Notes under the pieces: model-generated
The model's database searches: none
Seen by the model: only the letters and a program-made list of their open reading frames with translations
What the model was told of the DNA's origin: nothing
Shown here: positions 83 through 43,615 of the stretch, piece after piece
How positions within the stretch are numbered: the first letter of the stretch is position 1
How the letters are laid out: the number at the start of each line of letters is the position of its first letter
Made by a program: the position numbers and the translations under genes
NCBI GenBank assembly: GCA_038869515.1
Contig: JAWCQZ010000008.1
Span: 12,633 to 76,632, forward strand
Length of the DNA: 64,000 bases
Direction of reading: 5' to 3'
Source: Halobacteria archaeon
GTDB lineage: Archaea > Halobacteriota > Syntropharchaeia > JACQPP01

Positions 83-721
83 TTACGCGCGGACCCCGCG
101 CTTGGGGCAGAGCCGTTCCACGGGGCACTCCCCGCATCTCGGAGCCCGTGCCTGGCAGACCTTCCGGCCGTGGAGAATCAGGGTGTGGCCGAGGGGAATC
201 CACTCCTCGCGGGGAAACAGGGCCATCAGTTCCCGCTCGACCTGGAGAGGAGTGCGCCCCTTCGCGAGCCCGAGCCGCCGCGAAACCCGGAGTACGTGGG
301 TGTCCACGGTGACGCCTTCCGCGCGACCGAAGCCGTTGCCGAGAACGGCGGTGGCCGACTTCCGGCCGATGAAGGGCAGGGAGGTGAGGCCCTCCACCGT
401 GTCCGGGACCCGGCCGCCGAACCTCTCGACCAGCGCCCTCCCGATGGCGCGGATGGCGCGCGCCTTCGTGCGGTGGAGGCCGAGGGGGCGGATGAGCGAC
501 TGCAGCTCCGCGAGGTCGGCCTCCGCATAGTCGGCCGCGCTCCGGTAGCGCCGGAAGAGCGCGGGGGTCACCCGGTTCACCCGGGCGTCGGCGCACTGGG
601 CGGAGAGGAGGGTGGCGATGAGGAGCTGGAGGGGATCGGAGAACTCCAGCGAGCACTTCGCGCCGGGATGGGCGCGGCGGAGGGCGCGGAAAATGGGCGA
701 GGCCTGCCGCCGGAGGGTCAT
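83..721 (-). CDS. nth: Endonuclease III (DNA glycosylase/AP lyase, HhH-GPD with 4Fe-4S cluster)
   Basis: Translation shows the HhH-GPD core and a C-terminal C-x6-C-x2-C-x5-C cluster (CQARAPRCGECPVERLC). Start chosen at MTLRRQ, overlapping the truD stop by 4 nt. Confidence 0.85.
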   Translation of the reverse strand: MTLRRQASPIFRALRRAHPGAKCSLEFSDPLQLLIATLLSAQCADARVNRVTPALFRRYRSAADYAEADLAELQSLIRPLGLHRTKARAIRAIGRALVERFGGRVPDTVEGLTSLPFIGRKSATAVLGNGFGRAEGVTVDTHVLRVSRRLGLAKGRTPLQVERELMALFPREEWIPLGHTLILHGRKVCQARAPRCGECPVERLCPKRGVRA

Positions 722-1992
722 GCTTTCGTGAATTCGCGCAGCACCACGGTCGCGTAGGCCCCCGGCTCGAGCGAGAACTTCAGTTTGAGCGCGACGCAGC
801 CGGGGCTCCGCTCGTCGGGCCCCCCCTCCCACTTCACGGGCGCCGGCAGCAGGAGAGCCCGCCGCCTCCCCTTGGAGGTCACGGGGCCCCTTGCGAAGTC
901 CTCCGGCGCTATCCCCGCCCCCTCCAGCACCCCCCGCTCAATCTCTCCCGGCTCCCCGGAAGCCACGGGCGCCTCGGGGCCGAAGAGGGGGCCGCTGACC
1001 CGGGCGCGGCCCTCCGCCACAGCCCTCCGCGCGGCTTCGATGTTCCCGGGGGCCACCGTCTCGGTCCCGCCGCCGCGAAGGAGGAGGATGTCCCCCGCCA
1101 CCGGCTCGGCCAGAGAGAGCCCGCGGGCGAGCCGCTCGGAGAGGACGCGGTTGAACAGCCTCGCCTGGAAGCCGTGGACGAATAGGGTCCGGAGGCCGGC
1201 GGGCAGGGCCTCCAGGGCCCCGCCCCAGTCGTCCGGCTTCGCGATGAGGCGGTTCAGGAGCGCCTTCTCGAACCCGAGGGACTTGGGCATCGCTGCCAGC
1301 GCCCCCTTGAAGTCGCCCTCCCGGGCGAGCCTCCGGGCAGCGCGGGTCGCCTCGCCCTCTCCCTCTCCCTCGTCGGCGAGGTAGGCCCGCATCGCCCCCT
1401 CGACGTCGCCCCGCACCAGCAGTTCCCCGACGCGGTGGGTCACCGCCCTCCGCTCACCGAACCGCTGGAGGCCGAAGAAGTTGGGGGCGCCCCCCAGGTA
1501 GCGGAGCTCAGCGGCGGTGGCCTCCGCCCGGGCACGCACCTCCTCCGCCGGGAGGGGGATGGCCCGGAGGACGATCGAGAATCGGTTGGATTCGAGGTCT
1601 CCGAGGCCCACCGGCTCCGGGTCGAGTCCCACGGCCCGGAGGCGGACCCCGGCGAGCCTCACCGATTCGAGGGCCGCGGGCCGCACTCCGAAGAAACTCA
1701 TCCGCTGGACGGTCACGGCGTTTCGGTCCTTCATTCCGGCGAAAGAGATGCGCTTGCGGCTGATGCGGAGGGCGCGGGCGAGGGCGCGGACCAGCCCCTG
1801 GGTGTCCCAGTTCTCTTTCTCGACTTCGACAATCAGGTATCGGCCCGAGCCCCGGGGCTCCCGGCGCGGAATCTCCTCGACCCGGAAGTCGGCCGGCGTC
1901 TGGCGCAACACTCCGCCCACGCCGGGGGTCGCGGTCCCGTAGCGCTCCATGCCGACGGCGCGCTCGGCCTCGGGCGGAATGGGGACGCTCAC
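718..1992 (-). CDS. truD: tRNA pseudouridine synthase TruD/Pus7 family
   Basis: 424-aa ORF containing the GMKDRNAVTVQ motif, which matches the TruD catalytic Asp motif (GxKD+xAVT). Confidence 0.8.
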   Translation of the reverse strand: MSVPIPPEAERAVGMERYGTATPGVGGVLRQTPADFRVEEIPRREPRGSGRYLIVEVEKENWDTQGLVRALARALRISRKRISFAGMKDRNAVTVQRMSFFGVRPAALESVRLAGVRLRAVGLDPEPVGLGDLESNRFSIVLRAIPLPAEEVRARAEATAAELRYLGGAPNFFGLQRFGERRAVTHRVGELLVRGDVEGAMRAYLADEGEGEGEATRAARRLAREGDFKGALAAMPKSLGFEKALLNRLIAKPDDWGGALEALPAGLRTLFVHGFQARLFNRVLSERLARGLSLAEPVAGDILLLRGGGTETVAPGNIEAARRAVAEGRARVSGPLFGPEAPVASGEPGEIERGVLEGAGIAPEDFARGPVTSKGRRRALLLPAPVKWEGGPDERSPGCVALKLKFSLEPGAYATVVLREFTKA

Positions 1993-2351
1993 AGCAGAGG
2001 GAGGTCACCGGTCAGACGGTCGATGTCGGCCTCGGGGGCCGGCCCGACGCCGAGGGCGGTCACGCTCCCCGGGGGCAACTCGGTGTGGCCCGCATCTTCC
2101 ACGAGGCCGAAGGGGAGGCCCGCGCCCCGCGCCTCGTTCCGGAGCCGGAGGAGTTCCTTCAGGGTCGCCACCTTGAGGGCGACCTTCTTCGCCCCGCCGC
2201 GCTTCCACGCCCGGCGGGCCTCCTCCGGGGCCGCATCGTGGGCGAGGAGGGAGGCGTGGGCCGCCTGGGCCGCCATCTTGCCGGGGGACATGGAGAGGTC
2301 GGAGCGGAGGACCAGGACCTGCTTGTATTCGACCGTTTTCGCCCTTGCCAT
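1989..2351 (-). CDS. pth2: Peptidyl-tRNA hydrolase, archaeal type (Pth2)
   Basis: 120 aa (MARAKTVEYKQVLVLRSDL...GKMAAQAAHAS) typical of Pth2. Only the C-terminal part of the long six-frame ORF 1989..3083 is genuine. 4-nt overlap with truD. Confidence 0.85.
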   Translation of the reverse strand: MARAKTVEYKQVLVLRSDLSMSPGKMAAQAAHASLLAHDAAPEEARRAWKRGGAKKVALKVATLKELLRLRNEARGAGLPFGLVEDAGHTELPPGSVTALGVGPAPEADIDRLTGDLPLL

Positions 2352-2359
2352 TCTTCGCC

Positions 2360-3583
2360 CTAGATTTTCGTGTCCCCGCCGAGGAGGCGCTTGGCGATGA
2401 TTCTCCTCTGGATTTCCGACGAGCCGTCGGGGATGCGGAGCGCCCGGGCGAGCCGGAAGACCTCCTCCAGTTTCATCTCGTTGGTCAGCCCCATGCCGCC
2501 GTGGACCTGGATGGCGCGGTCCATGACCCGGAAGAGCATCTCGGTCGCGTAGAGCTTCGCCATCGAAATTTCCTTCAGCGCCATCTCCCCCTTCTCGATT
2601 CGCCACGCGGTGTTCAGCGCCATGTACTTGCAGGTGGCGATGTCCACCGCGCTGTCGGCCAGCATCCACTGGATGGCCTGCCGCTCGCCGATGGGCTTGC
2701 CGAAGGTGACCCGCTGCTTGGCATACTCGACCGACCTCTCCAGGGCCCACTCGGCGAGGCCGGTGCAGAGACCCGCGAGGCTGAGGCGGCCCGTTCCGAT
2801 GCCCAGCATCCCCAACTGGAATGCCTGGTCCACCTTGCCCAGGACGAACTCCGGGGCGACCTCGACGTCCTCCAGCGAGATGAGGGCCACATCGCTCCCG
2901 ATGAATCCCATGAAGGGGACGATGGACTCCACCTTGAAGCCCGGCGCCTTCGTGTCCACGAAGAAGCCCGAGACGCCCCCCTTGTGGGCCTTTTGCATCT
3001 CCCGGTTGGTGACCGCGAAGACGAAGGCCCAGTCGGCGTAGGGCCCGTTGGTGATCCACATCTTCTGGCCGTTGATGACCCACTTCCCGTTCCGCTTCTC
3101 GGCGGTGGTCCGCATGTTCCAGGCGTCGGAGCCCGCTTCCGCCTCGGAGAAGCAGAAGCAGACCGTCTTCTCGCCGCTCAGCATCTCGGGCATCACCTTC
3201 TCGCGGGTCGCCTTCGGAAGCGCCTCGAGCATGGGGTTGGGGCCGCGGGGGAAGCCGCCGATGACCTCGCCCCGGAGGATGCCGGGGCCGCGGCGCCAGT
3301 TGGCCTCGGCGACCTGGAAGGCGAGGGTGGGTCCGTAGCCGCCGCCCCCCAGGTTCTTCGAGAGGAAGAGCGTGTAGAAACCGGCCTCCGCCGACTTCAT
3401 GCGGACCTGCTTCTTCAGGGCCTCGACCTCGGGCGGGTGGAGGCCGTCCTCCCGGTAGAGTTTGCGGGGATTCTGCAGGAGTTCCTTGTGCTTCTCCTCC
3501 AGAGGATAGACCTCCTGCTGGAGGAACTTCTCCAGCGCGTCGAGGATGGCGCGGTGCTCGTCGGAGATGGAGAAATCAACCAT
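2360..3583 (-). CDS. Acyl-CoA dehydrogenase
   Basis: 407 aa with the ACAD signature along its length (…GGGGYGP…, …YATEMLFRVMDRAIQVHGGMG…). Confidence 0.9.
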   Translation of the reverse strand: MVDFSISDEHRAILDALEKFLQQEVYPLEEKHKELLQNPRKLYREDGLHPPEVEALKKQVRMKSAEAGFYTLFLSKNLGGGGYGPTLAFQVAEANWRRGPGILRGEVIGGFPRGPNPMLEALPKATREKVMPEMLSGEKTVCFCFSEAEAGSDAWNMRTTAEKRNGKWVINGQKMWITNGPYADWAFVFAVTNREMQKAHKGGVSGFFVDTKAPGFKVESIVPFMGFIGSDVALISLEDVEVAPEFVLGKVDQAFQLGMLGIGTGRLSLAGLCTGLAEWALERSVEYAKQRVTFGKPIGERQAIQWMLADSAVDIATCKYMALNTAWRIEKGEMALKEISMAKLYATEMLFRVMDRAIQVHGGMGLTNEMKLEEVFRLARALRIPDGSSEIQRRIIAKRLLGGDTKI

Positions 3584-3781
3584 CTACCAAGCGGCCTTAG
3601 ACTGCATCCGGGAGCCCTTGAGGCCGTGGACCTTGCAGAACACCTGCCTCCCGTCGGTCACGGTGACTTTGCACCGGGCGCAGACCGGTCGCTTGCAGAT
3701 CTGGCACGACGCGACCCCGGGGGTCCCGGGGTGCCAGTGACAGGGCTTGCCGGGGAGGGGGGAAACGACGGCCGCGGCCAT
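3584..3781 (-). CDS. Small zinc-ribbon protein (about 65 aa, CxxC...CxxC) translationally coupled to the ACAD gene
   Basis: C-terminal 65 aa of ORF 3584..4225 (MAAAVVSPLPGKPCHWHPG…CQICKRPVCARCKV…FCKVHG). Its stop TAG at 3584-3586 abuts the ACAD start at 3583. Confidence 0.35.
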   Translation of the reverse strand: MAAAVVSPLPGKPCHWHPGTPGVASCQICKRPVCARCKVTVTDGRQVFCKVHGLKGSRMQSKAAW

Positions 3782-3839
3782 TCCTCGGGGGGAGGCCGGG
3801 GGATGGAAAACCCTTTCTCTCCCCCACCTATGCCCCCGG

Positions 3840-5498
3840 ATGGCCGCCTCCGGACCCCGCACCGATCTCATGCTCCCCGCCGGCTCCCTGAAGGGCCGCT
3901 CCGCCATCGTCACCGGCGGCGGGACCGGCATCGGCCTCGCCACCGCCAAGACTTTCGCCCGCCTCGGGGCCAACGTCGCCATCGCCTCCCGGAGCCAGGA
4001 GCACCTCGGCCCGGCCCGCAAGGAGCTGGAGGATCTGGGGGCCAAGGTGGTGGCCCTCCCCACCGACGTCCGGCAGGTGGCCCAGGCGGAGGCCCTGGTG
4101 AAATCGGCCAGGGAGGCCTTCGGCCGCGTGGACATCCTGGTGAACAACGCCTCCGGGAACTTCGTCACCCCGGTCACGAAACTCTCGGTGAACGGCTGGC
4201 GCGCGGTGGTGGACATCGTCCTCAACGGGACCTTCTACTGCACCCGGGCCGCGGGCCGCGAGATGGTGAAGCAGCGCTCGGGGCGCATCGTGAACATCGT
4301 CTCCACCATGGCGTGGACCGGCGGTCCCGGGACCTCCCACAACGCCGCCGCGAAGGCGGGGGTCGTGGGGCTCACCCGCTCCCTGGCGTCCGAACTCGCC
4401 TCCTTCAACATCCGGGTCAACGCCGTCGCCCCCGGCCCGGTGAAGACCGAGGGCGCGGAGAAGAACCTCTTCCCGACCCCCGAGGCGCAGAAGTCCATCA
4501 CCGACCGGGTGCCGGTGAAGCGGTTCGCCGCCCCCGAGGAGGTGGCGAACCTTGTCGCCTACCTGGTCTCCGACTGGGCCGACTACATGAACGGGGCGGT
4601 GGTCCCCATGGACGGCGGGTACTCCCTCAGCATGGGCGGACTGGAGGCGTGGGCGGGTCCGAAGGGCGGGGACAGGCCCCTCTCCCCCGAACCCCCGGCC
4701 CCCCGGACGAACGGGCTCACTCTCGCCGGAAAGACCGCCATCGTGACCGGCGGTGGGACCGGCATCGGGAAGGCCTCGGCCCTCCTCTTCGCCCGCCTCG
4801 GGGCGAAGGTCGCCGTGACCTCGCGCAAGGTGGAGAACCTGGAGCAGACCGTGCGGGAAATCAAGGCCGCGGGGGGCGAGGCGTTCGCCCTCCCGTGCGA
4901 CGTCCGGCTCCCCGAGCAGGTGGAGGCGATGGCGAAGCAGGTGAAGGAGCGCTGGGGCCGGATTGACCTCCTCTTCAGCAACGCAGGAGCGAACTTCCCG
5001 AGCCCCTTCCTGCAGTTGAGCGACAACGCCTGGAACGCCATCGTCGGAATCAACCTCCACGGCTCCTTCCACTGCGCCAAGTTCGTGGGGGCCGAGATGA
5101 TCAAGCAGAAGTCGGGAGTCATCATCCACAACGTGACCCCTTACGCGTGGACCGGGGCCCCCATCATGGCCCACACCAGCGCCGCCAAGGGGGCCATCCT
5201 CAACCTGACCCAGAGCCTCGCCGTGGAGTGGGCGGTCCACCGCATCCGGGTGAACGCCGTCGCCCCGGGGCCCATCCTGACCGAGGGGTCCCGCAAGAAC
5301 TTCATCGAGAAGAACCCGGCCGCCGCCGAAGTGGTCCGGCGCCGTGTCCCCTGGAAGCGGTGGGGGACCCCGGAGGACATCGCCCGCGCCGTGGCCTACC
5401 TCGCCTCCGACTGGGCGGACTACGTCACCGGGGCGTGCCTCACCGTGGACGGGGGCGAGTGGCTCTACAAGCCCATCGTCGAGCAATTGGCCCAATAA
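3840..5498 (+). CDS. Tandem fusion of two short-chain dehydrogenase/reductase domains, 2,4-dienoyl-CoA reductase-like
   Basis: Two complete SDR units each carry a TGGGTGIG Rossmann motif (…AIVTGGGTGIGLATA… and …AIVTGGGTGIGKASA…) joined by a Pro-rich linker. The SxnAAAK region lacks the classical Tyr, as in DECR-type SDRs. Start is ambiguous between 3747 and 3840 (MAASGPRT…). Confidence 0.8.
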   Translation: MAASGPRTDLMLPAGSLKGRSAIVTGGGTGIGLATAKTFARLGANVAIASRSQEHLGPARKELEDLGAKVVALPTDVRQVAQAEALVKSAREAFGRVDILVNNASGNFVTPVTKLSVNGWRAVVDIVLNGTFYCTRAAGREMVKQRSGRIVNIVSTMAWTGGPGTSHNAAAKAGVVGLTRSLASELASFNIRVNAVAPGPVKTEGAEKNLFPTPEAQKSITDRVPVKRFAAPEEVANLVAYLVSDWADYMNGAVVPMDGGYSLSMGGLEAWAGPKGGDRPLSPEPPAPRTNGLTLAGKTAIVTGGGTGIGKASALLFARLGAKVAVTSRKVENLEQTVREIKAAGGEAFALPCDVRLPEQVEAMAKQVKERWGRIDLLFSNAGANFPSPFLQLSDNAWNAIVGINLHGSFHCAKFVGAEMIKQKSGVIIHNVTPYAWTGAPIMAHTSAAKGAILNLTQSLAVEWAVHRIRVNAVAPGPILTEGSRKNFIEKNPAAAEVVRRRVPWKRWGTPEDIARAVAYLASDWADYVTGACLTVDGGEWLYKPIVEQLAQ

Positions 5499-5529
5499 GC
5501 CTTTTGAACCGCGGCCGCGACCCCGACCC

Positions 5530-5868
5530 ATGGCCACGACTCGGAGGCGGCTCACCCGCATCGAGCCCTTCTCGGCCGCCATCATGGGCGGGGCCACAGG
5601 CTTCGCGCTCGGGTTCCTGAACGGCCTCGGGACGGTCCTCTTCTTTCCCGCGCTGCGCCAGGGGATGAGCGACCTGGGCCTGGCCCAGTTGACGGGGCTG
5701 GTCAACGAATGGGTGAAGGCGTTTCCCTTCGCCTTCGAGTGGCCCGCCCTCCTCCTGAGCCCCATCGCCTGGGCCTTCGGTGGGGCCGGGGGGGCCTTCG
5801 CAGCCTGCATCTTCTACAACCTCCTGGCGAAGCGGCTCGGGGGCATCGAGTTCGAACTCGACGAATAG
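5530..5868 (+). CDS. Small membrane protein, hypothetical
   Basis: 113 aa from ATG 5530 (MATTRRRLTRIEPFSAAIMGGATGFALGFLNGLGTVLFF…) with two predicted hydrophobic helices. Confidence 0.45.
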   Translation: MATTRRRLTRIEPFSAAIMGGATGFALGFLNGLGTVLFFPALRQGMSDLGLAQLTGLVNEWVKAFPFAFEWPALLLSPIAWAFGGAGGAFAACIFYNLLAKRLGGIEFELDE

Positions 5869-5876
5869 CCCGGAAG

Positions 5877-6197
5877 TTAGAAGCGGTTTCCGGAGGCGGA
5901 GCCCTGGCCGGGTCGCGCCCGCTTCCGGCGGTACCACTCGGCGACCCCCGCAGCCTCCAGCAACTCCTGGAAGCGGACGGGGTTCGTGCGCTCGAATTGC
6001 GGGCCGTGCTCGAGGAGGACGGGGGTCAGGTCGGAGAGGAAATCGGTCCTGCCCAGCTCCTGCAGGAAGCGGCCGGCCGGGACCTGGCTGATGAGAAACC
6101 CCTCCACCTTCAGCCGCAGGCGGAGCGCCTTTTGCTCCGGGGTCTCGACCGGTCTCGATTCCGCGCCCTCCGACCTGCGGCGGACGAAGAGGCCCAC
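5877..6197 (-). CDS. Hypothetical protein (possible GTG start)
   Basis: Open frame downstream of the 6200..6610 gene. A GTG at 6195-6197 lies 2 nt after the upstream stop. No recognisable domain. Confidence 0.3.
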   Translation of the reverse strand: MGLFVRRRSEGAESRPVETPEQKALRLRLKVEGFLISQVPAGRFLQELGRTDFLSDLTPVLLEHGPQFERTNPVRFQELLEAAGVAEWYRRKRARPGQGSASGNRF

Positions 6198-6199
6198 GG

Positions 6200-6610
6200 C
6201 TACCGGTAGGCGGGGTCCTCTTCGAGCAGTTCCACCGGCTGCCGCCCCTGGAACCCCGCCTCCACGTCGTGCCAGAACCGGATGGTGTCCTCCCCCCGCT
6301 TCCAGCAGAGGAAAATCTCCCGCCCCTGGTGGCGCGCAGGGAAGTCCACGAGGCCCGCGTGCCAATCCTTGACGACGGCGCCCACGACGAGGAGCTCCTC
6401 GAGCCCCTGGTAGAACTCCAGGGCCTTGCCGTGGAACTCCCGGTTGCGGCGCACCGTGGCGAGGAGAGTGTCGAGGGGCTCTTCGAACTCGATGGAGAGC
6501 TCCTGGAGGGAGGACAGCTGGGACTGGAGGTCCTGGAGCCGCTCCAGCATCTCCCGGACCCGGGGGAGGGCGGCCCGCGCCTCCGGGAGGGTCCAGAGTC
6601 TCTTCCCCAT
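6200..6610 (-). CDS. DUF2203-like conserved hypothetical protein
   Basis: 136 aa from MGKRLWTLPE…. The motif …LVDFPARHQGREIFLCWKRGEDTIRFWHDVEAGF… resembles DUF2203 (from memory, unverified). Confidence 0.45.
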   Translation of the reverse strand: MGKRLWTLPEARAALPRVREMLERLQDLQSQLSSLQELSIEFEEPLDTLLATVRRNREFHGKALEFYQGLEELLVVGAVVKDWHAGLVDFPARHQGREIFLCWKRGEDTIRFWHDVEAGFQGRQPVELLEEDPAYR

Positions 6611-6645
6611 GGTCCCCGTGCCACTTCTCGGAATATGAAAGCCTC

Positions 6646-7008
6646 TCAGTTTCGGCGCCGTGCCCTGCGGCTCCGCCGCCCCGGGCCCCGGGGGGCGGGC
6701 GGGGACTCCCGGAGGAGGTCGCCGAAGGTGCAGAGGAACCCCCGGCAGGCGTGCTGGAAGTCGCGCCGGCCCGCGGGGGTCACGGAGTAGACTTTGCGGC
6801 GGGAGTCGGGCGGGCAGCAGCCGGGGGGGCAGTGGATGAGCCCCCGGGCCTCGAGGACCTTGAGGGCCGGGTAGAGGGTCCCCGGGTTGGGCCGGACCCC
6901 GCGGCGCCGGCCCAACTCCGCCGCGAGTTCGCTCCCGGACATGGGCCTCCGGCTCAGGAGCCAGAGGAGGAGGAAGGAGAGGAACCCGCGGTTCTCGATG
7001 AGGGCCAT
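6646..7008 (-). CDS. PadR-family transcriptional regulator with an unusual Cys-rich insertion in the wing
   Basis: PadR wHTH signature (…GSELAAELGRRRGVRPNPGTLYPALKVLEARGLI…RKVYSVTPAG…). The usual wing is replaced by HCPPGCCPPDS, and a further C-terminal HACRGFLC is present. Confidence 0.8.
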   Translation of the reverse strand: MALIENRGFLSFLLLWLLSRRPMSGSELAAELGRRRGVRPNPGTLYPALKVLEARGLIHCPPGCCPPDSRRKVYSVTPAGRRDFQHACRGFLCTFGDLLRESPPAPRGPGRRSRRARRRN

Positions 7009-7054
7009 CTCCCGGAGTGGGGGGGAGGGGGCTCATAAGCCTTCGCCCGGCGCA

Positions 7055-7121
7055 ACCCTTTTATATTGGTAATCCAACTATCCAGGATTATTGGGTATCC
7101 AATAATCCAAGGAGGTGACCC
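7055..7121. promoter_or_regulatory. Divergent promoter/operator region between padR and the small peptide gene
   Basis: An AT-rich island in GC-rich DNA with a TTTATATT TATA-like box at about 7059-7066. Downstream are palindromic TTGGTAATCCAA and TTGGGTATCCAA elements plus repeated ATCCAA hexamers, followed by the SD GGAGGTGA at 7111-7118. Confidence 0.45.
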
Positions 7122-7217
7122 ATGAAACTCTGCAAACTGCTCCTCGTCGCGCTCGTGGTGGGGGCGGTCGTCCACCACCACAAGAAGAAGTGCTGCGGCT
7201 GCCACGGCTGCTGCTAA
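7122..7217 (+). CDS. Unannotated 31-aa Cys/His-rich small membrane peptide MKLCKLLLVALVVGAVVHHHKKKCCGCHGCC
   Basis: ATG at 7122, TAA at 7215-7217. A strong SD GGAGGTGA sits 3 nt upstream and a TATA-like box about 55 nt upstream. The peptide has a hydrophobic N-terminal helix followed by an HHH-KKK-CCGCHGCC tail. It falls below the 60-aa cutoff of the ORF track. Confidence 0.4.
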   Translation: MKLCKLLLVALVVGAVVHHHKKKCCGCHGCC

Positions 7218-7292
7218 CCTGTCTCCGGGGGAGGGGAGGCGAAGCCCCCCCGTTCACAGGCACGCCCCCCCACCCCCTGTCCTCAACTTTGG

Positions 7293-7862
7293 CTATTCCA
7301 AAAATCTCATCAGCCGACTCCACGCCTTCCGTTCCCGGGGCCCCCCGCACTTGAGGACCACAGGCTCCAGCTCGCGGATTCTCCGGAGCAGGCCGGCATC
7401 CTTGAAAATCGCATAGCGGGTCGCATGGACCGTCGCCTCGAGGACCCCGTCGAACCCCCGGTTGGGGGCACGGGGGGCGGCCCGGGCCACGCGGCCCGCC
7501 ACCGGAGCGAGACGGAACGCGACCCTCCCCTCCTCCAGCCGCTCCGGACGCGCGCGGAACGAGACCCAGGCCGAGGCGGCCCGGAGGACCGGCCCGTGGC
7601 GGGTCGGGGAGAAGCGGGCCGGCCCCAGGTCCCGGAACGCCGCCTCCACGAAGAGGAGGGGGTCCTCGACGACGTTCGCGATGAGGGCCCCCGACGCCTC
7701 CACATTGGCCAGAGTCCGGGAGGGGCGGTAGAGCACGGCTTCGACGCGCCCCCCGGAGCGGCGGAGTCCCGTCGGTGCGGCGTGGGGGCGGCCCCGGGGG
7801 CCGAGGGTCGTCGCGAGGGTCTCGGAGATTCCGGGCCGCAGACCGAACCGGTCGAGGTCCAT
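7293..7862 (-). CDS. DUF447-like protein (FMN-binding split-barrel family, methanopterin-biosynthesis associated)
   Basis: 189 aa from MDLDRFGLRP. The gene begins a few nt downstream of the CitG-like gene. The family assignment is from memory, not a search. Confidence 0.45.
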   Translation of the reverse strand: MDLDRFGLRPGISETLATTLGPRGRPHAAPTGLRRSGGRVEAVLYRPSRTLANVEASGALIANVVEDPLLFVEAAFRDLGPARFSPTRHGPVLRAASAWVSFRARPERLEEGRVAFRLAPVAGRVARAAPRAPNRGFDGVLEATVHATRYAIFKDAGLLRRIRELEPVVLKCGGPRERKAWSRLMRFLE

Positions 7863-7867
7863 CGCGC

Positions 7868-8710
7868 TCACCGCCCCAGCAGCCACAGAAAGATGCCCGC
7901 GACCAGGATGTCGGCGGTGGAGCCGGGGTTAATCCCCCGCGCCGCCAGTTCATCGTCCCACCGCTCCAGCCGCCGGAGCGGCGCCCGCCGCAGGGCGCGG
8001 GCCCTCCGCCGGACCCGCTCCGCGGCGGCCGCCCCCGCCTTCACCGCCACGAGGGAGTCGGGGGCACGGGCGAGGAGGTCGAGGTAGGTGCGGACCACCC
8101 CCTCGTTCCAGCAGGAGCGCCCGAGGCGGGCCGCGAGGCGCGAGGCCGCCCACCCGCACTCCGCGAAGCCGTTGGACCACTCCCTCGCCACCCGGTCCCG
8201 GGGGGCGGCCAGGGTCACCGCATCGTAGAGGGTCGTCCCGCTCCTCCGGGCAGCAGCGCCGGCCCGCGGGTCGCGCAAATCGAGGGGGCCCGCGAAGGGG
8301 GCCACCCGCACCGGGGCGGCGCGGAAGGCGCGGTAGAACCCTACCGCGTCCTCCGCCGTGCTCCGGCGGACGAGGCGGTGGGCCCGGCTCCGGACGGCCG
8401 CGGGTCCCCGGGCCCCGCCCGCCCCGGCCGCGAGGGGCACCAGGAGGAGGAGGGTGCCGAAGTGGGTGTTGCCCCCCGGCTGGGCCGCCACCGACGCCTC
8501 GACCGCCCGCCGGAACCACCGGCCGAGCCCGCGCCTTTCCCGGGCGGCCCCCTCGAGGGCGGGGCGGCAGGCGAGGGCCGATGCGACGAAGTGCTCGTAC
8601 CGGGCCCCCCCGTGGTCGTGGCGGGGGCCGACGTTGCCGGGCTTGGGGGAGGCGGAGGCCTCCAGGACCATGGCGAGGGAGCCGCACGCCCCGACGAGGG
8701 AGGGGTCCAT
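7868..8710 (-). CDS. Triphosphoribosyl-dephospho-CoA synthase (CitG/MdcB) family protein
   Basis: 280 aa from MDPSLVGACGS… (ATG at 8708-8710). The architecture is CitG-like. The N-terminal three quarters of the long ORF 7868..9862 is spurious. Confidence 0.65.
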   Translation of the reverse strand: MDPSLVGACGSLAMVLEASASPKPGNVGPRHDHGGARYEHFVASALACRPALEGAARERRGLGRWFRRAVEASVAAQPGGNTHFGTLLLLVPLAAGAGGARGPAAVRSRAHRLVRRSTAEDAVGFYRAFRAAPVRVAPFAGPLDLRDPRAGAAARRSGTTLYDAVTLAAPRDRVAREWSNGFAECGWAASRLAARLGRSCWNEGVVRTYLDLLARAPDSLVAVKAGAAAAERVRRRARALRRAPLRRLERWDDELAARGINPGSTADILVAGIFLWLLGR

Positions 8711-8767
8711 GGGGCTCCTCCCTGCGCCGGGAGAAAACGGCTTTGACCTCCCGACACCCTCGCGAGG

Positions 8768-9622
8768 ATGCGCATCGCGCGGTTCGGGCTCCCGGGCCGG
8801 GAGGGGTGGGGCTTCGTGGTGGGAGACGGGGTCGTCGAGGGCCCCTCCGTGGGGCTGCCGGGAAGCCTCGACTCCCTCCTTGGCGGAAACGCCGCGGCGT
8901 CGCTCGCCGGGGCGCGGGCCTCCCTGGCCGCCGCCCGCCCCTCCCTCCGCCTCCCGGAGGTCGCCCTCCGCGCCCCGGTCCGCCCGTCGAAAATCGTCTG
9001 CGTCGGGCTGAACTACGCCGACCACGCGGCGGAGACCGGCGCGAAGATTCCGAAGGAGCCGGTCCTGTTCGCGAAACTGCCCAACGCGGTCGCCGGGCCC
9101 CGCGACGACATCCGATGCCCCGGCTTCGTGGAGCGCCTCGACTACGAGGCGGAGCTGGGGGTGGTGATCGGGGCGCGATGCCGCGACATCGAGCCCTCCC
9201 GGGCCATGGAGCAGGTCCTCGGCTACGTCGCCGTCAACGACCTCTCGGCCCGGGACCTGCAGGCCCGGGACGGCCAGTGGACGCGCGCGAAGTCGCTCGA
9301 CACCTTCTGCCCCGTGGGGCCGTGGCTGGTGACGGCCGATGAAATCCCCGACCCCCACCGGCTCGCGGTCCGGGCGCGGGTGAACGGAGAGGTGCGCCAA
9401 GACTCCTCCACGGCGAGCATGGTGGTGAAACTCCCGGAACTCATCGCCTACATCAGCCGCGGCATGACGCTGGAGCCGGGGGACCTCATCTCCACGGGGA
9501 CGCCGGCGGGGGTGGGGATGGGGCGGAGGCCGCCCGTGTTCCTGAAGGAGGGGGACGTGGTGGAAGTGGAGGTTGGCGGGGTGGGGGCCCTCCGGAACCG
9601 GGTCCGGAGGGAAGGAGGGTAA
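8768..9622 (+). CDS. Fumarylacetoacetate hydrolase (FAH) family protein (2-keto-4-pentenoate hydratase/decarboxylase type)
   Basis: …KIVCVGLNYADHAAE…DYEAELGVVIG…GDLISTGTPAGVG… are canonical FAH-family motifs. Confidence 0.85.
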   Translation: MRIARFGLPGREGWGFVVGDGVVEGPSVGLPGSLDSLLGGNAAASLAGARASLAAARPSLRLPEVALRAPVRPSKIVCVGLNYADHAAETGAKIPKEPVLFAKLPNAVAGPRDDIRCPGFVERLDYEAELGVVIGARCRDIEPSRAMEQVLGYVAVNDLSARDLQARDGQWTRAKSLDTFCPVGPWLVTADEIPDPHRLAVRARVNGEVRQDSSTASMVVKLPELIAYISRGMTLEPGDLISTGTPAGVGMGRRPPVFLKEGDVVEVEVGGVGALRNRVRREGG

Positions 9623-17267: not shown

Positions 17268-17339
17268 TGCGCCAATCGGGAGTCGAACCCGAGTTTTGGG
17301 CTTGGCAAGCCCAAGTCATAACCGCTAGACCATTGGCGC
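17268..17339 (-). tRNA. tRNA-Gly (anticodon GCC)
   Basis: Folded by hand: acceptor GCGCCAA/UUGGCGC, anticodon stem UGGGC/GCCCA with loop UUGCCAA, T-arm UCGGG-UUCGACU-CCCGA, discriminator A. CCA is not encoded. Confidence 0.8.
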
Positions 17340-43541: not shown

Positions 43542-43615
43542 TGGGGGCGGTAGGATTTGAACCCACGAGAGGCGGGTCTGGAGCCCGCTGCCTTACCTGG
43601 CTAGGCAACACCCCC
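43542..43615 (-). tRNA. tRNA-Trp (anticodon CCA), no intron
   Basis: Folded by hand: acceptor GGGGGUG/CGCCCCC, D-stem GCCU/AGGC, anticodon stem GCGGG/CCCGC with loop CUCCAGA, T-arm GUGGG-UUCAAAU-CCUAC, discriminator A. Confidence 0.8.

Follow-up and report, generated by a model that had tools for sequence, protein, structure and literature searches.

What does an archaeal PadR-family repressor sense and control when the gene conserved beside it is an open reading frame (ORF) for a peptide of only 31 amino acids (aa)? The question is raised by a 64,000-nucleotide stretch of DNA from a Halobacteria archaeon (assembly GCA_038869515.1, contig JAWCQZ010000008.1, positions 12,633 to 76,632), which is referred to as the window. 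The initial annotation, made from the letters of the window, had proposed that thiol-rich motifs in both products connect the pair to metals or redox chemistry. Our comparative analysis favors one answer, to which we assign a probability of about 0.5: the PadR protein would respond to thiophilic metals or metalloids, As(III) being the favored ligand, and would control a membrane-anchored, thiol-rich peptide, the two genes forming a self-contained stress module. We read the pair as an arsenic or soft-metal switch because relatives of the repressor mostly appear to guard genes for the arsenite methyltransferase ArsM. The two genes are as follows.

6646 to 7008, minus strand: padR, encoding a PadR-family repressor of 120 aa, single-domain PadR-s2 type, with a winged helix-turn-helix and a long C-terminal helix
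7122 to 7217, plus strand: the small gene, encoding the 31-aa peptide MKLCKLLLVALVVGAVVHHHKKKCCGCHGCC, divergent from padR, with orthologous ORFs in loci L001, L091 and L002

Both genes were found where the initial annotation had placed them, and its expectation that the small ORF would be conserved next to padR in related genomes was confirmed by four versions of the pair. Besides the window, these come from the following loci.

L092 and L109-L112: PadR about 97% identical to that of the window, peptide identical to that of the window
L091: PadR 84% identical, peptide MKLCKLLLVALVVGAVVHHHKRKHCGCC, 28 aa
L001: PadR 80% identical, peptide MKLLKLLVVALVVGAVIHHHRKHCCRCGCC, 30 aa
L002: PadR 52% identical, peptide MVLVPFLIGLAIGRHCCCRKHCC, 23 aa

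The four distinct sequence versions belong to two lineages, and in the window, L001, L091 and L002 the peptide ORF is divergent from the PadR gene at 114-136 bp from its start. In an approximate neighbor-joining tree, the four peptide-linked PadR proteins formed one branch, apart from the ArsM branch. Between the window and L091, the first 22 codons of the small ORF differ by six synonymous changes and one conservative change, and the amino acid replacements among the lineages are L/V, V/I, K/R or C/L only. The Cys/His tail, not the hydrophobic part, is the most conserved and most distinctive part of the peptide, and its Cys-rich end has been re-created with other codons and lengths in each lineage. 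The L002 peptide shares little DNA identity with the others and has no positive N-region, and the genes around the L002 pair are different as well, with DUF1802 and PMI-like genes in place of the DUF447, CitG and DUF2203 genes. Because the flanking genes differ in L002, only the regulator-peptide pair can be regarded as conserved. The earlier pairing of regulator and micro-ORF was borne out: the two genes make up a module that is conserved and has its operators in a common promoter. On contig L110, which carries the identical peptide, the PadR gene (416-799, minus strand) was called at 127 aa rather than 120, and the intergenic gap is shorter there (85 bp); either a different choice of start or a variant gene could account for this.

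Several observations suggest that the small ORF is a genuine gene: the pair recurs, the substitutions are mostly synonymous or conservative, the GC content at third codon positions (GC3) in frame is 0.91 (0.87-0.96 in real genes here), and the TATA box, operators and Shine-Dalgarno sequence described below are kept. We also applied a strict filter to small ORFs (length 18-70 aa, a hydrophobic run of 12 residues or more, and four or more Cys among the 12 C-terminal residues). One of the 1,068 small ORFs in the window passed it, and none passed in 20 composition-matched Markov simulations; in six frames of about 77 non-redundant related loci (about 0.5 Mb), matches occurred only at the padR-divergent position. 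An untranslated ORF, with the conserved DNA representing only a promoter/operator and, in the control region of padR, a leader or a short RNA without coding function, would fit the shortness of the ORF and the outcome of the protein searches. A phmmer search against 1.84 billion representatives gave no match, with low power for a 31-aa low-complexity query, and an exact look-up found none of the four peptide versions in the clustered protein collection. This explanation has very little probability in our view, since frame, start, stop and Shine-Dalgarno sequence are kept in all four versions, including the DNA-divergent L002, and since the skewed substitutions, the GC3 and the re-created Cys tail all speak against it. 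Nor was a structured RNA signal found: Rfam gave no family over the padR-peptide region, its only window matches at gathering threshold being two tRNAs, and a terminator or structured RNA 3' of the small ORF was not supported (fold z = -0.29, no Rfam family).

The peptide had been called unannotated and probably undescribed. It has no match in Pfam or NCBIfam and belongs to no described metallothionein family, and a literature search, which did not cover all journals, found no description of it. It is nevertheless predicted by gene callers, without a name, on six public contigs in identical form, so that the first part of that statement holds for the name only.

The two genes share a 113-bp intergenic island of 45-56% GC, compared with about 70% in the surrounding DNA. 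The TATA-like box, the palindromes and the repeated ATCCAA that had been noticed in this AT-rich island were all recovered, and the elements are arranged as follows.

7059 to 7066: TATA-like TTTTATAT of the shared divergent promoter, kept as TTTATATA/TTATATA in L001, L091, L092 and L002
7065 to 7078: operator 1, ATTGGTAATCCAAC, an ATTGG-N4-CCAAT palindrome with one mismatch, abutting the TATA box
7080 to 7088: central short palindrome ATCCAGGAT, two inward-facing operator half-sites, ATCCTGGAT in L001 and TCCATGGA in L091
7090 to 7103: operator 2, ATTGGGTATCCAAT, a perfect palindrome that covers the position where transcription of the small gene is expected to begin
7105 to 7110: extra ATCCAA half-site, 3' of operator 2
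7111 to 7118, plus strand: Shine-Dalgarno sequence GGAGGTGA, 3 nt from the ATG, its position kept in each of the four versions of the module

The Shine-Dalgarno sequence had been described as strong. It is present as described, but enrichment by count was rejected as evidence (4 copies in the window against 3.6 expected), and its weight comes from the conservation of its position across lineages.

ATTGG-N4-CCAAT is the predicted operator of the PadR clade. We scanned for it, with at most one mismatch, in the 260 bp upstream of the PadR genes of 94 non-redundant archaeal loci. These loci comprise 80 from a scan of species-representative genomes (the best 80 of 144 confirmed related stretches, from many archaeal lineages) and other fetched loci, and they are also the basis of the partner counts given below. 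There were 127 sites in the 24 kb upstream of the clade PadR genes and 28 in 494 kb elsewhere, a 93-fold difference in density, with at least one site in 77 of the 94 loci and at least two in 47. The 64-kb window contains only two such matches, both in the padR-peptide intergenic region and both on the peptide side, between the TATA box and the ATG of the small gene. Where arsM is the partner, the space between the divergent genes contains a single palindromic TATA box, ATTTAAAT, with an operator on either side. Operators that abut a TATA box or lie over a start would be in a position typical of archaeal repressors. We infer that a PadR homodimer would bind the two palindromes, abutting the TATA box and covering the expected start of the small gene, and would shut off the peptide gene. 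The padR gene is probably shut off too, because operator 1 touches the shared TATA box.

The PadR protein matched Pfam PF03551 over residues 14-85 (51.4 bits, cutoff 27), confirming the family assignment of the initial annotation. No ArsR/HTH_5 match was found in Pfam, and NCBIfam gave weak PadR-type matches only. The AlphaFold model (predicted local distance difference test, pLDDT, 77.5) has helices at residues 6-20, 25-36 and 42-54, a wing, and a helix alpha4 at residues 78-101. Foldseek with this model returned PadR structures at a probability of 1.00 (3elk, 5zi8 (Rv3488), 9qbc and LmrR), the best matches being TA0346, Rv3488 (36% identity) and LmrR; together, model and search describe a single domain with one long C-terminal dimerisation helix and no second domain. 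Rv3488, a cadmium-binding protein, was crystallised with a bound ligand ('in complex w...' in the structure title) and offers a precedent for a PadR protein that deals with metals. The N-terminus of the window protein, MALIENRG, is without Cys and lacks the N-terminal CC...(PP)xCC arm before DMRG. Its cysteines fall into two motifs instead.

6802 to 6834, minus strand: codons of HCPPGCCPPDS, residues 59-69, a Cys/Pro-rich, lineage-specific beta-wing loop with C60, C64 and C65
6730 to 6747, minus strand: codons of CRGFLC (C88...F91...C93) in helix alpha4, a clade-wide Cys pair around an invariant Phe

These motifs are not of equal standing, the alpha4 pair being the conserved feature and the wing motif being limited to the nearest relatives. 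The initial annotation had given the wing motif most weight, as an insertion at the position of the beta-wing. HCPPGCCPPDS is in the wing (residues 60-72 form a loop of low confidence in the model), but it is an insertion only relative to the six-residue wing of the rest of the clade, its 11 residues being the canonical length, as in LmrR. As a conserved sensor feature the motif did not hold up. In alignment A1 it occurs in the window protein and P0001 (relatives about 97% identical) only; homologs 80-84% identical have RCPAPPVS (P0002, RCP-APPVS) or RCCPPGPRQ (P0003) in the wing, and the L002 protein has no Cys motif there and one Cys in beta-strand 2 instead. The second motif, HACRGFLC, was present as reported and occupies residues 86-93 of helix alpha4. 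Alignments A1 and A2 show little or no variation at C88 and F91, and C88-x2-F91-x-C93 corresponds to the clade motif C-x2-F-C with one extra residue. An objection considered earlier, that the cysteines might be a lineage-wide feature unrelated to any neighboring peptide, fails for the wing motif and holds for the alpha4 pair, which is clade-wide and therefore not specific to the peptide partnership.

An hhalign alignment to LmrR placed C88 at F93, F91 at W96, the second Cys of the clade at S97 and C93 of the window protein at R98. We take these LmrR positions to line the ligand pore at the two-fold axis of the dimer, so that a PadR dimer would present four thiols in the pore. The alpha4 pair C88/C93, lining this dimer-interface pore, is thus a conserved candidate for the ligand site, and a second one may be provided by the Cx3CC cluster that only this lineage has in its DNA-contacting wing. 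A thiophilic ligand bound to these cysteines would release the repressor; As(III) or methyl-As(III) (MAs(III)) is favored, with Cd, Hg, Cu(I) and Zn as alternatives.

The preference for arsenic comes from the wider PadR clade. At the 94 loci, the divergent partners of the PadR genes were as follows.

ArsM: 39 loci
Small DUF5320-like proteins, Cys/His/Met-rich at the N-terminus (sub-threshold Pfam match): 7 loci
Rieske-type proteins (Nitrososphaerales): 6 loci
Micrarchaeal Cys-rich coiled-coil proteins: 4 loci
Hydrophobic Cys-tail peptide: 4 loci
Small soluble proteins ending in ...ACGCC or ...CKGCC: 2 loci
Other or none recognised, including VOC/glyoxalase-type genes: 32 loci

ArsM is the partner of all 31 PadR proteins in which an N-terminal Cys cluster accompanies the alpha4 pair, and of none of the 16 single-Cys 'MCDMRG' PadR proteins. 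Three ArsM proteins that we scanned (L004, L009 and L010) matched NCBIfam NF008823 at 300-338 bits (cutoff 263). The suggestion of a thiol link to metals thus gained comparative support, from these 31 two-motif proteins and from other sub-clades with Cys-rich partners, and the ArsM-linked PadR looks like an undescribed regulator of archaeal arsenic methylation. The divergent arrangement of arsM with a Cys-rich PadR gene was seen in L004, L009, L010, L014, L017, L020, L027, L041 and another 31 loci, mostly near position 2100-3300, and its hosts are Bathyarchaeia, Hydrothermarchaeota, Thermoplasmata-like and other archaea. Other ars genes beside arsM-padR were rejected, a Pfam scan of 141 neighboring ORFs having shown unrelated housekeeping genes; because the genes beyond the pair are of this kind, arsM-padR appears to be a two-gene module like peptide-padR. 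No literature linking PadR to arsM, arsenic or metal sensing was found, although not all journals were covered.

The remaining partners are diverse. The 49-71-aa family (L006 2816-2968, minus strand; L016, L076 and L093-L096) lies beside padR, divergent upstream, and combines a variable Cys/His/Met-rich N-terminus, such as MEDDGCDCGPGCGSGYGR or MCRHHGIHGRGHNVFIHGMGPGMGMGHGPGPCMGR, with a conserved coiled-coil tail, FLTxEEKxxxLxxYKxWLExExKGV; its match to Pfam DUF5320 is sub-threshold only, and we found essentially no literature on DUF5320. In the Micrarchaeota loci L021, L053, L060 and L064, the divergent upstream gene encodes a Cys-rich N-terminus (CKNEGDCCNDDSEGNGCGHGHCGEGNCGNGGCGEGNEC in L021) followed by a conserved coiled coil with WAKxELLKEKVK, and these proteins look metallothionein-like, without a family assignment. 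The soluble proteins divergent upstream of padR in L063 (57 aa) and L097 (45 aa) have a DGF(T/S)I core in common, and their C-termini read ...GFPACGCC and ...CKDICKGCC, respectively, a CC-type tail that resembles the tail of the window peptide. In Nitrososphaerales (L013, L025, L038, L050, L081, L083, L019, L044, L087 and L089), the PadR cysteines are limited to 'MCDMRG', and the partners are small Rieske [2Fe-2S] or two-domain VOC/glyoxalase-type proteins, with the same operator motif. In the Thermoplasmata-like loci L039, L042, L056 and L082, padR is followed on the same strand by genes for a 220-aa thioredoxin-fold protein and a MoxR-type AAA ATPase, and ArsM is encoded 350-514 bp upstream of padR, with space for an extra small gene between.

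Part of this diversity would also suit a redox or Fe-S sensor, in which the PadR cysteines would form disulfides or ligate a cluster on exposure to oxidants or O2 and the peptide would be a membrane-proximal thiol buffer or a redox-active micro-protein. Thioredoxin-fold genes follow some of the clade padR genes, the Nitrososphaerales members are paired with Rieske [2Fe-2S] proteins, many homologs have 4-6 Cys per monomer, which could ligate a cluster, most hosts are anaerobes (by record titles), and the closest solved relatives include RosR, the oxidative-stress regulator of Halobacterium. However, the dominant and motif-correlated partner is ArsM and not a redox-defence gene, the Rieske-linked PadR proteins are exactly those without the cysteines, and the likeness to RosR (26% identity) reflects the generic PadR fold. 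We regard redox sensing as unlikely on this balance.

Under the metal or metalloid reading, the peptide would be the effector. It consists of a hydrophobic run of 12-13 residues, then His3-Lys3, then a tail with five Cys; six of the 31 residues are Cys, five of them among the last eight, and there are no F, W or Y and no acidic residues. Across the versions, the hydrophobic run is followed by three K/R, 2-4 His and then 3-5 Cys. The hydrophobic N-terminal run argues against a soluble protein. The label 'membrane peptide' of the initial annotation is nevertheless uncertain, because the run is only 12-13 residues long. After induction, the peptide would anchor in the membrane by this short segment, the positive-inside rule would keep the HHHKKKCCGCHGCC tail in the cytoplasm, and the tail may act at the membrane as a chelator that sequesters the metal or metalloid or hands it on to an exporter.

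The same architecture allows two other functions. The N-terminus, with an n-region (MK), an h-region and a small-residue c-region (GAV), could be a signal or leader from which a His/Cys-rich 10-14-mer is released as a metallophore-like product or one like a ribosomally synthesised and post-translationally modified peptide (RiPP). The ORF of about 30 aa with its Cys-rich C-terminal core is precursor-like, and methanobactin precursors are superficially similar to it. A secreted or processed product is, however, highly unlikely: PadR is the only conserved neighbor of the small ORF, with no maturation, radical-SAM or export genes conserved beside it, the three K/R directly after the hydrophobic run disfavor translocation of the tail, and the L002 peptide has no positive N-region. 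Alternatively, the product may be membrane-active rather than a chelator, that is, a toxin-like peptide silenced by PadR or a modulator of a transporter or enzyme, with a Cys tail used for oligomerisation or modification. Type I toxins and regulatory micro-proteins are similar to it in size, in having one hydrophobic segment and in the cationic C-flank; operators over the promoter predict tight repression, and no dedicated exporter gene adjoins. This proposal seems quite unlikely to us, given that it is the Cys/His tail and not the hydrophobic part that is most conserved, that the Rfam scan detected neither a family nor an antisense RNA over the region, and that the partners of related PadR proteins, soluble Cys-rich proteins and ArsM, point to thiol chemistry.

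Several points weigh against the arsenic or soft-metal switch itself. The link to arsenic is an association through paralogous sub-clades that are only 49-54% identical, and in the window sub-clade the N-terminal CC...CC arm is missing and neither ArsM nor another ars gene is encoded nearby. The clade has no single effector, as the Nitrososphaerales PadR proteins, without the cysteines, have Rieske or VOC partners, and close relatives already differ in the wing Cys cluster. For a helix that spans the membrane, the hydrophobic run is short. His3/Lys3 would suit the borderline metals Zn, Ni and Cu at least as well as As(III), which binds thiols only. Only four distinct versions of the peptide module are available, three of them from one lineage, and exhaustive searches gave no further relatives of the peptide-linked sub-clade: a scan of JGI metagenomes with the sub-clade alignment A3 returned relatives of at most 48% identity and no further ORFs with a hydrophobic segment and Cys tail, and a search from P0004 returned P0001-P0004 only.

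The surroundings of the pair in the window add little to this picture. The neighboring genes and the tRNA genes are listed here.

6200 to 6612, minus strand: 137-aa gene, 33 nt 3' of padR and probably co-transcribed with it, context only
7293 to 7886, minus strand: DUF447 gene, convergent to the small ORF
7868 to 8698, minus strand: CitG-like triphosphoribosyl-dephospho-CoA synthase gene, with a 19-nt overlap with the DUF447 gene
17268 to 17339 and 43542 to 43615, minus strand: tRNA genes, the two Rfam matches mentioned above

The 137-aa gene gave no match in direct Pfam scans, and its homologs in L001, L091, L092 and L109 have precomputed matches to DUF2203; DUF2203 was rejected as a member of the module, being absent after padR in L002. 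The DUF447 and CitG-like pair is syntenic in L001, L091 and L109. The neighbors of padR are not ars genes, and no ArsM was found in the 64-kb window. A single ORF of 583 aa at 3747-5498 (plus strand) encodes two complete short-chain dehydrogenase/reductase domains in tandem, and a called gene with this tandem pair is found at the syntenic place in L001 (550 aa) and in L109 (552 aa). Note that ORF length alone is no evidence for a gene in the window, because its GC content of about 70% yields spurious long ORFs; many of these overlap on both strands in 5000-9500, for example 3828-5810 (minus strand, 660 aa) and 7078-7953 (minus strand, 291 aa).

If the proposed switch is correct, it would explain the regulation of arsenite methylation in uncultured Bathyarchaeia, Hadarchaeota, Methanocellales, Thermoplasmata-like and other archaea, through an arsM regulator from a family not counted among metalloregulators. 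Arsenite methylation influences how mobile arsenic is in anoxic sediments, paddy soils and groundwater, and ATTGG-N4-CCAAT with its repressor might provide parts for archaeal or synthetic arsenic or metal biosensors. The peptide would represent a new type of micro-protein, with a hydrophobic anchor and a His/Lys/Cys tail, that is missed by standard annotation, and the clade would show, as ArsR does, how ligand sites can move in nature while the winged-helix scaffold stays the same.

Among known systems, the nearest in logic are the ArsR/SmtB repressors (R773 ArsR, AfArsR, CgArsR and ArArsR), small homodimeric winged-helix proteins that act on their own promoter, as proposed here for PadR. They are released when As(III) binds three Cys, often including a vicinal pair, at sites that lie in varied spots of the winged-helix protein, including the DNA-binding domain, and just two Cys are needed for MAs(III) (PMC11868830). 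Their sites arose independently at differing places of the scaffold, and the Cys clusters of the PadR clade are likewise found in the N-terminal arm, the alpha4 pore and the wing; as candidates for a three-coordinate Cys site, the window protein has Cx3CC in the wing and Cx4C in alpha4. The two systems differ in protein family, in the archaeal host with its TATA-box promoter, and in the target, which is a micro-peptide and not an ars operon. ArsR/SmtB genes are linked to ars genes, whereas the window sub-clade has no such linkage, though 39 homologous loci have arsM.

In fold and length, the window PadR corresponds to LmrR of L. lactis and Rv3488 of M. tuberculosis, which repress a divergent or adjacent detoxification gene and have their ligand site in the alpha4 dimer pore. 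LmrR binds planar drugs via Trp96, whereas the pore positions of the window protein are cysteines; neither LmrR nor Rv3488 has a Cys/Pro wing or a micro-peptide target, and their operator differs from ATTGG-N4-CCAAT. The arsM-padR modules and the window pair have PadR proteins of one clade with the alpha4 Cys pair, the same operator, and two divergent genes arranged about a single TATA box. The PadR proteins of the arsM modules have the N-terminal CC..PPxCC arm and a short wing, whereas that of the window has no N-terminal Cys and a Cys-rich wing, and the partner is ArsM in the one case and the 31-aa peptide in the other. RiPP precursors of the methanobactin type have adjacent maturation and export genes, which are lacking in the neighborhoods of the window and L002, and type I toxins have an antisense RNA antitoxin; control at the window locus appears to be exerted by a protein repressor.

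For the peptide, the closest comparison is with MymT and SmtA, which are small, Cys-rich, devoid of aromatic residues and under metal-sensing repressors; the peptide is likewise small, Cys-rich and without F, W or Y. MymT, a small Cys-rich metallothionein of 4.9 kDa, was at first a non-annotated ORF, as is the window peptide, which at 23-31 aa across its versions is roughly half its size (PMC7558416). Unlike MymT and SmtA, the peptide has a hydrophobic N-terminal anchor, and its Cys are confined to an 8-10-residue tail after His/Lys. The pair may represent the familiar combination of a winged-helix metal or metalloid repressor with a thiol-rich target, built on a different scaffold and with a new micro-protein. 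In its widest form, which we put forward tentatively and hold to be somewhat doubtful, PadR would join ArsR, MerR and CsoR as a metal- and metalloid-sensing scaffold, with a widespread archaeal clade that detects trivalent arsenic or soft metals by Cys sites moved among the N-terminal arm, the alpha4 pore and the DNA-contacting wing, and its output here would be a micro-protein of a new class for detoxification at the membrane, smaller (23-31 aa) than any other membrane-tethered metallothionein-like peptide known.

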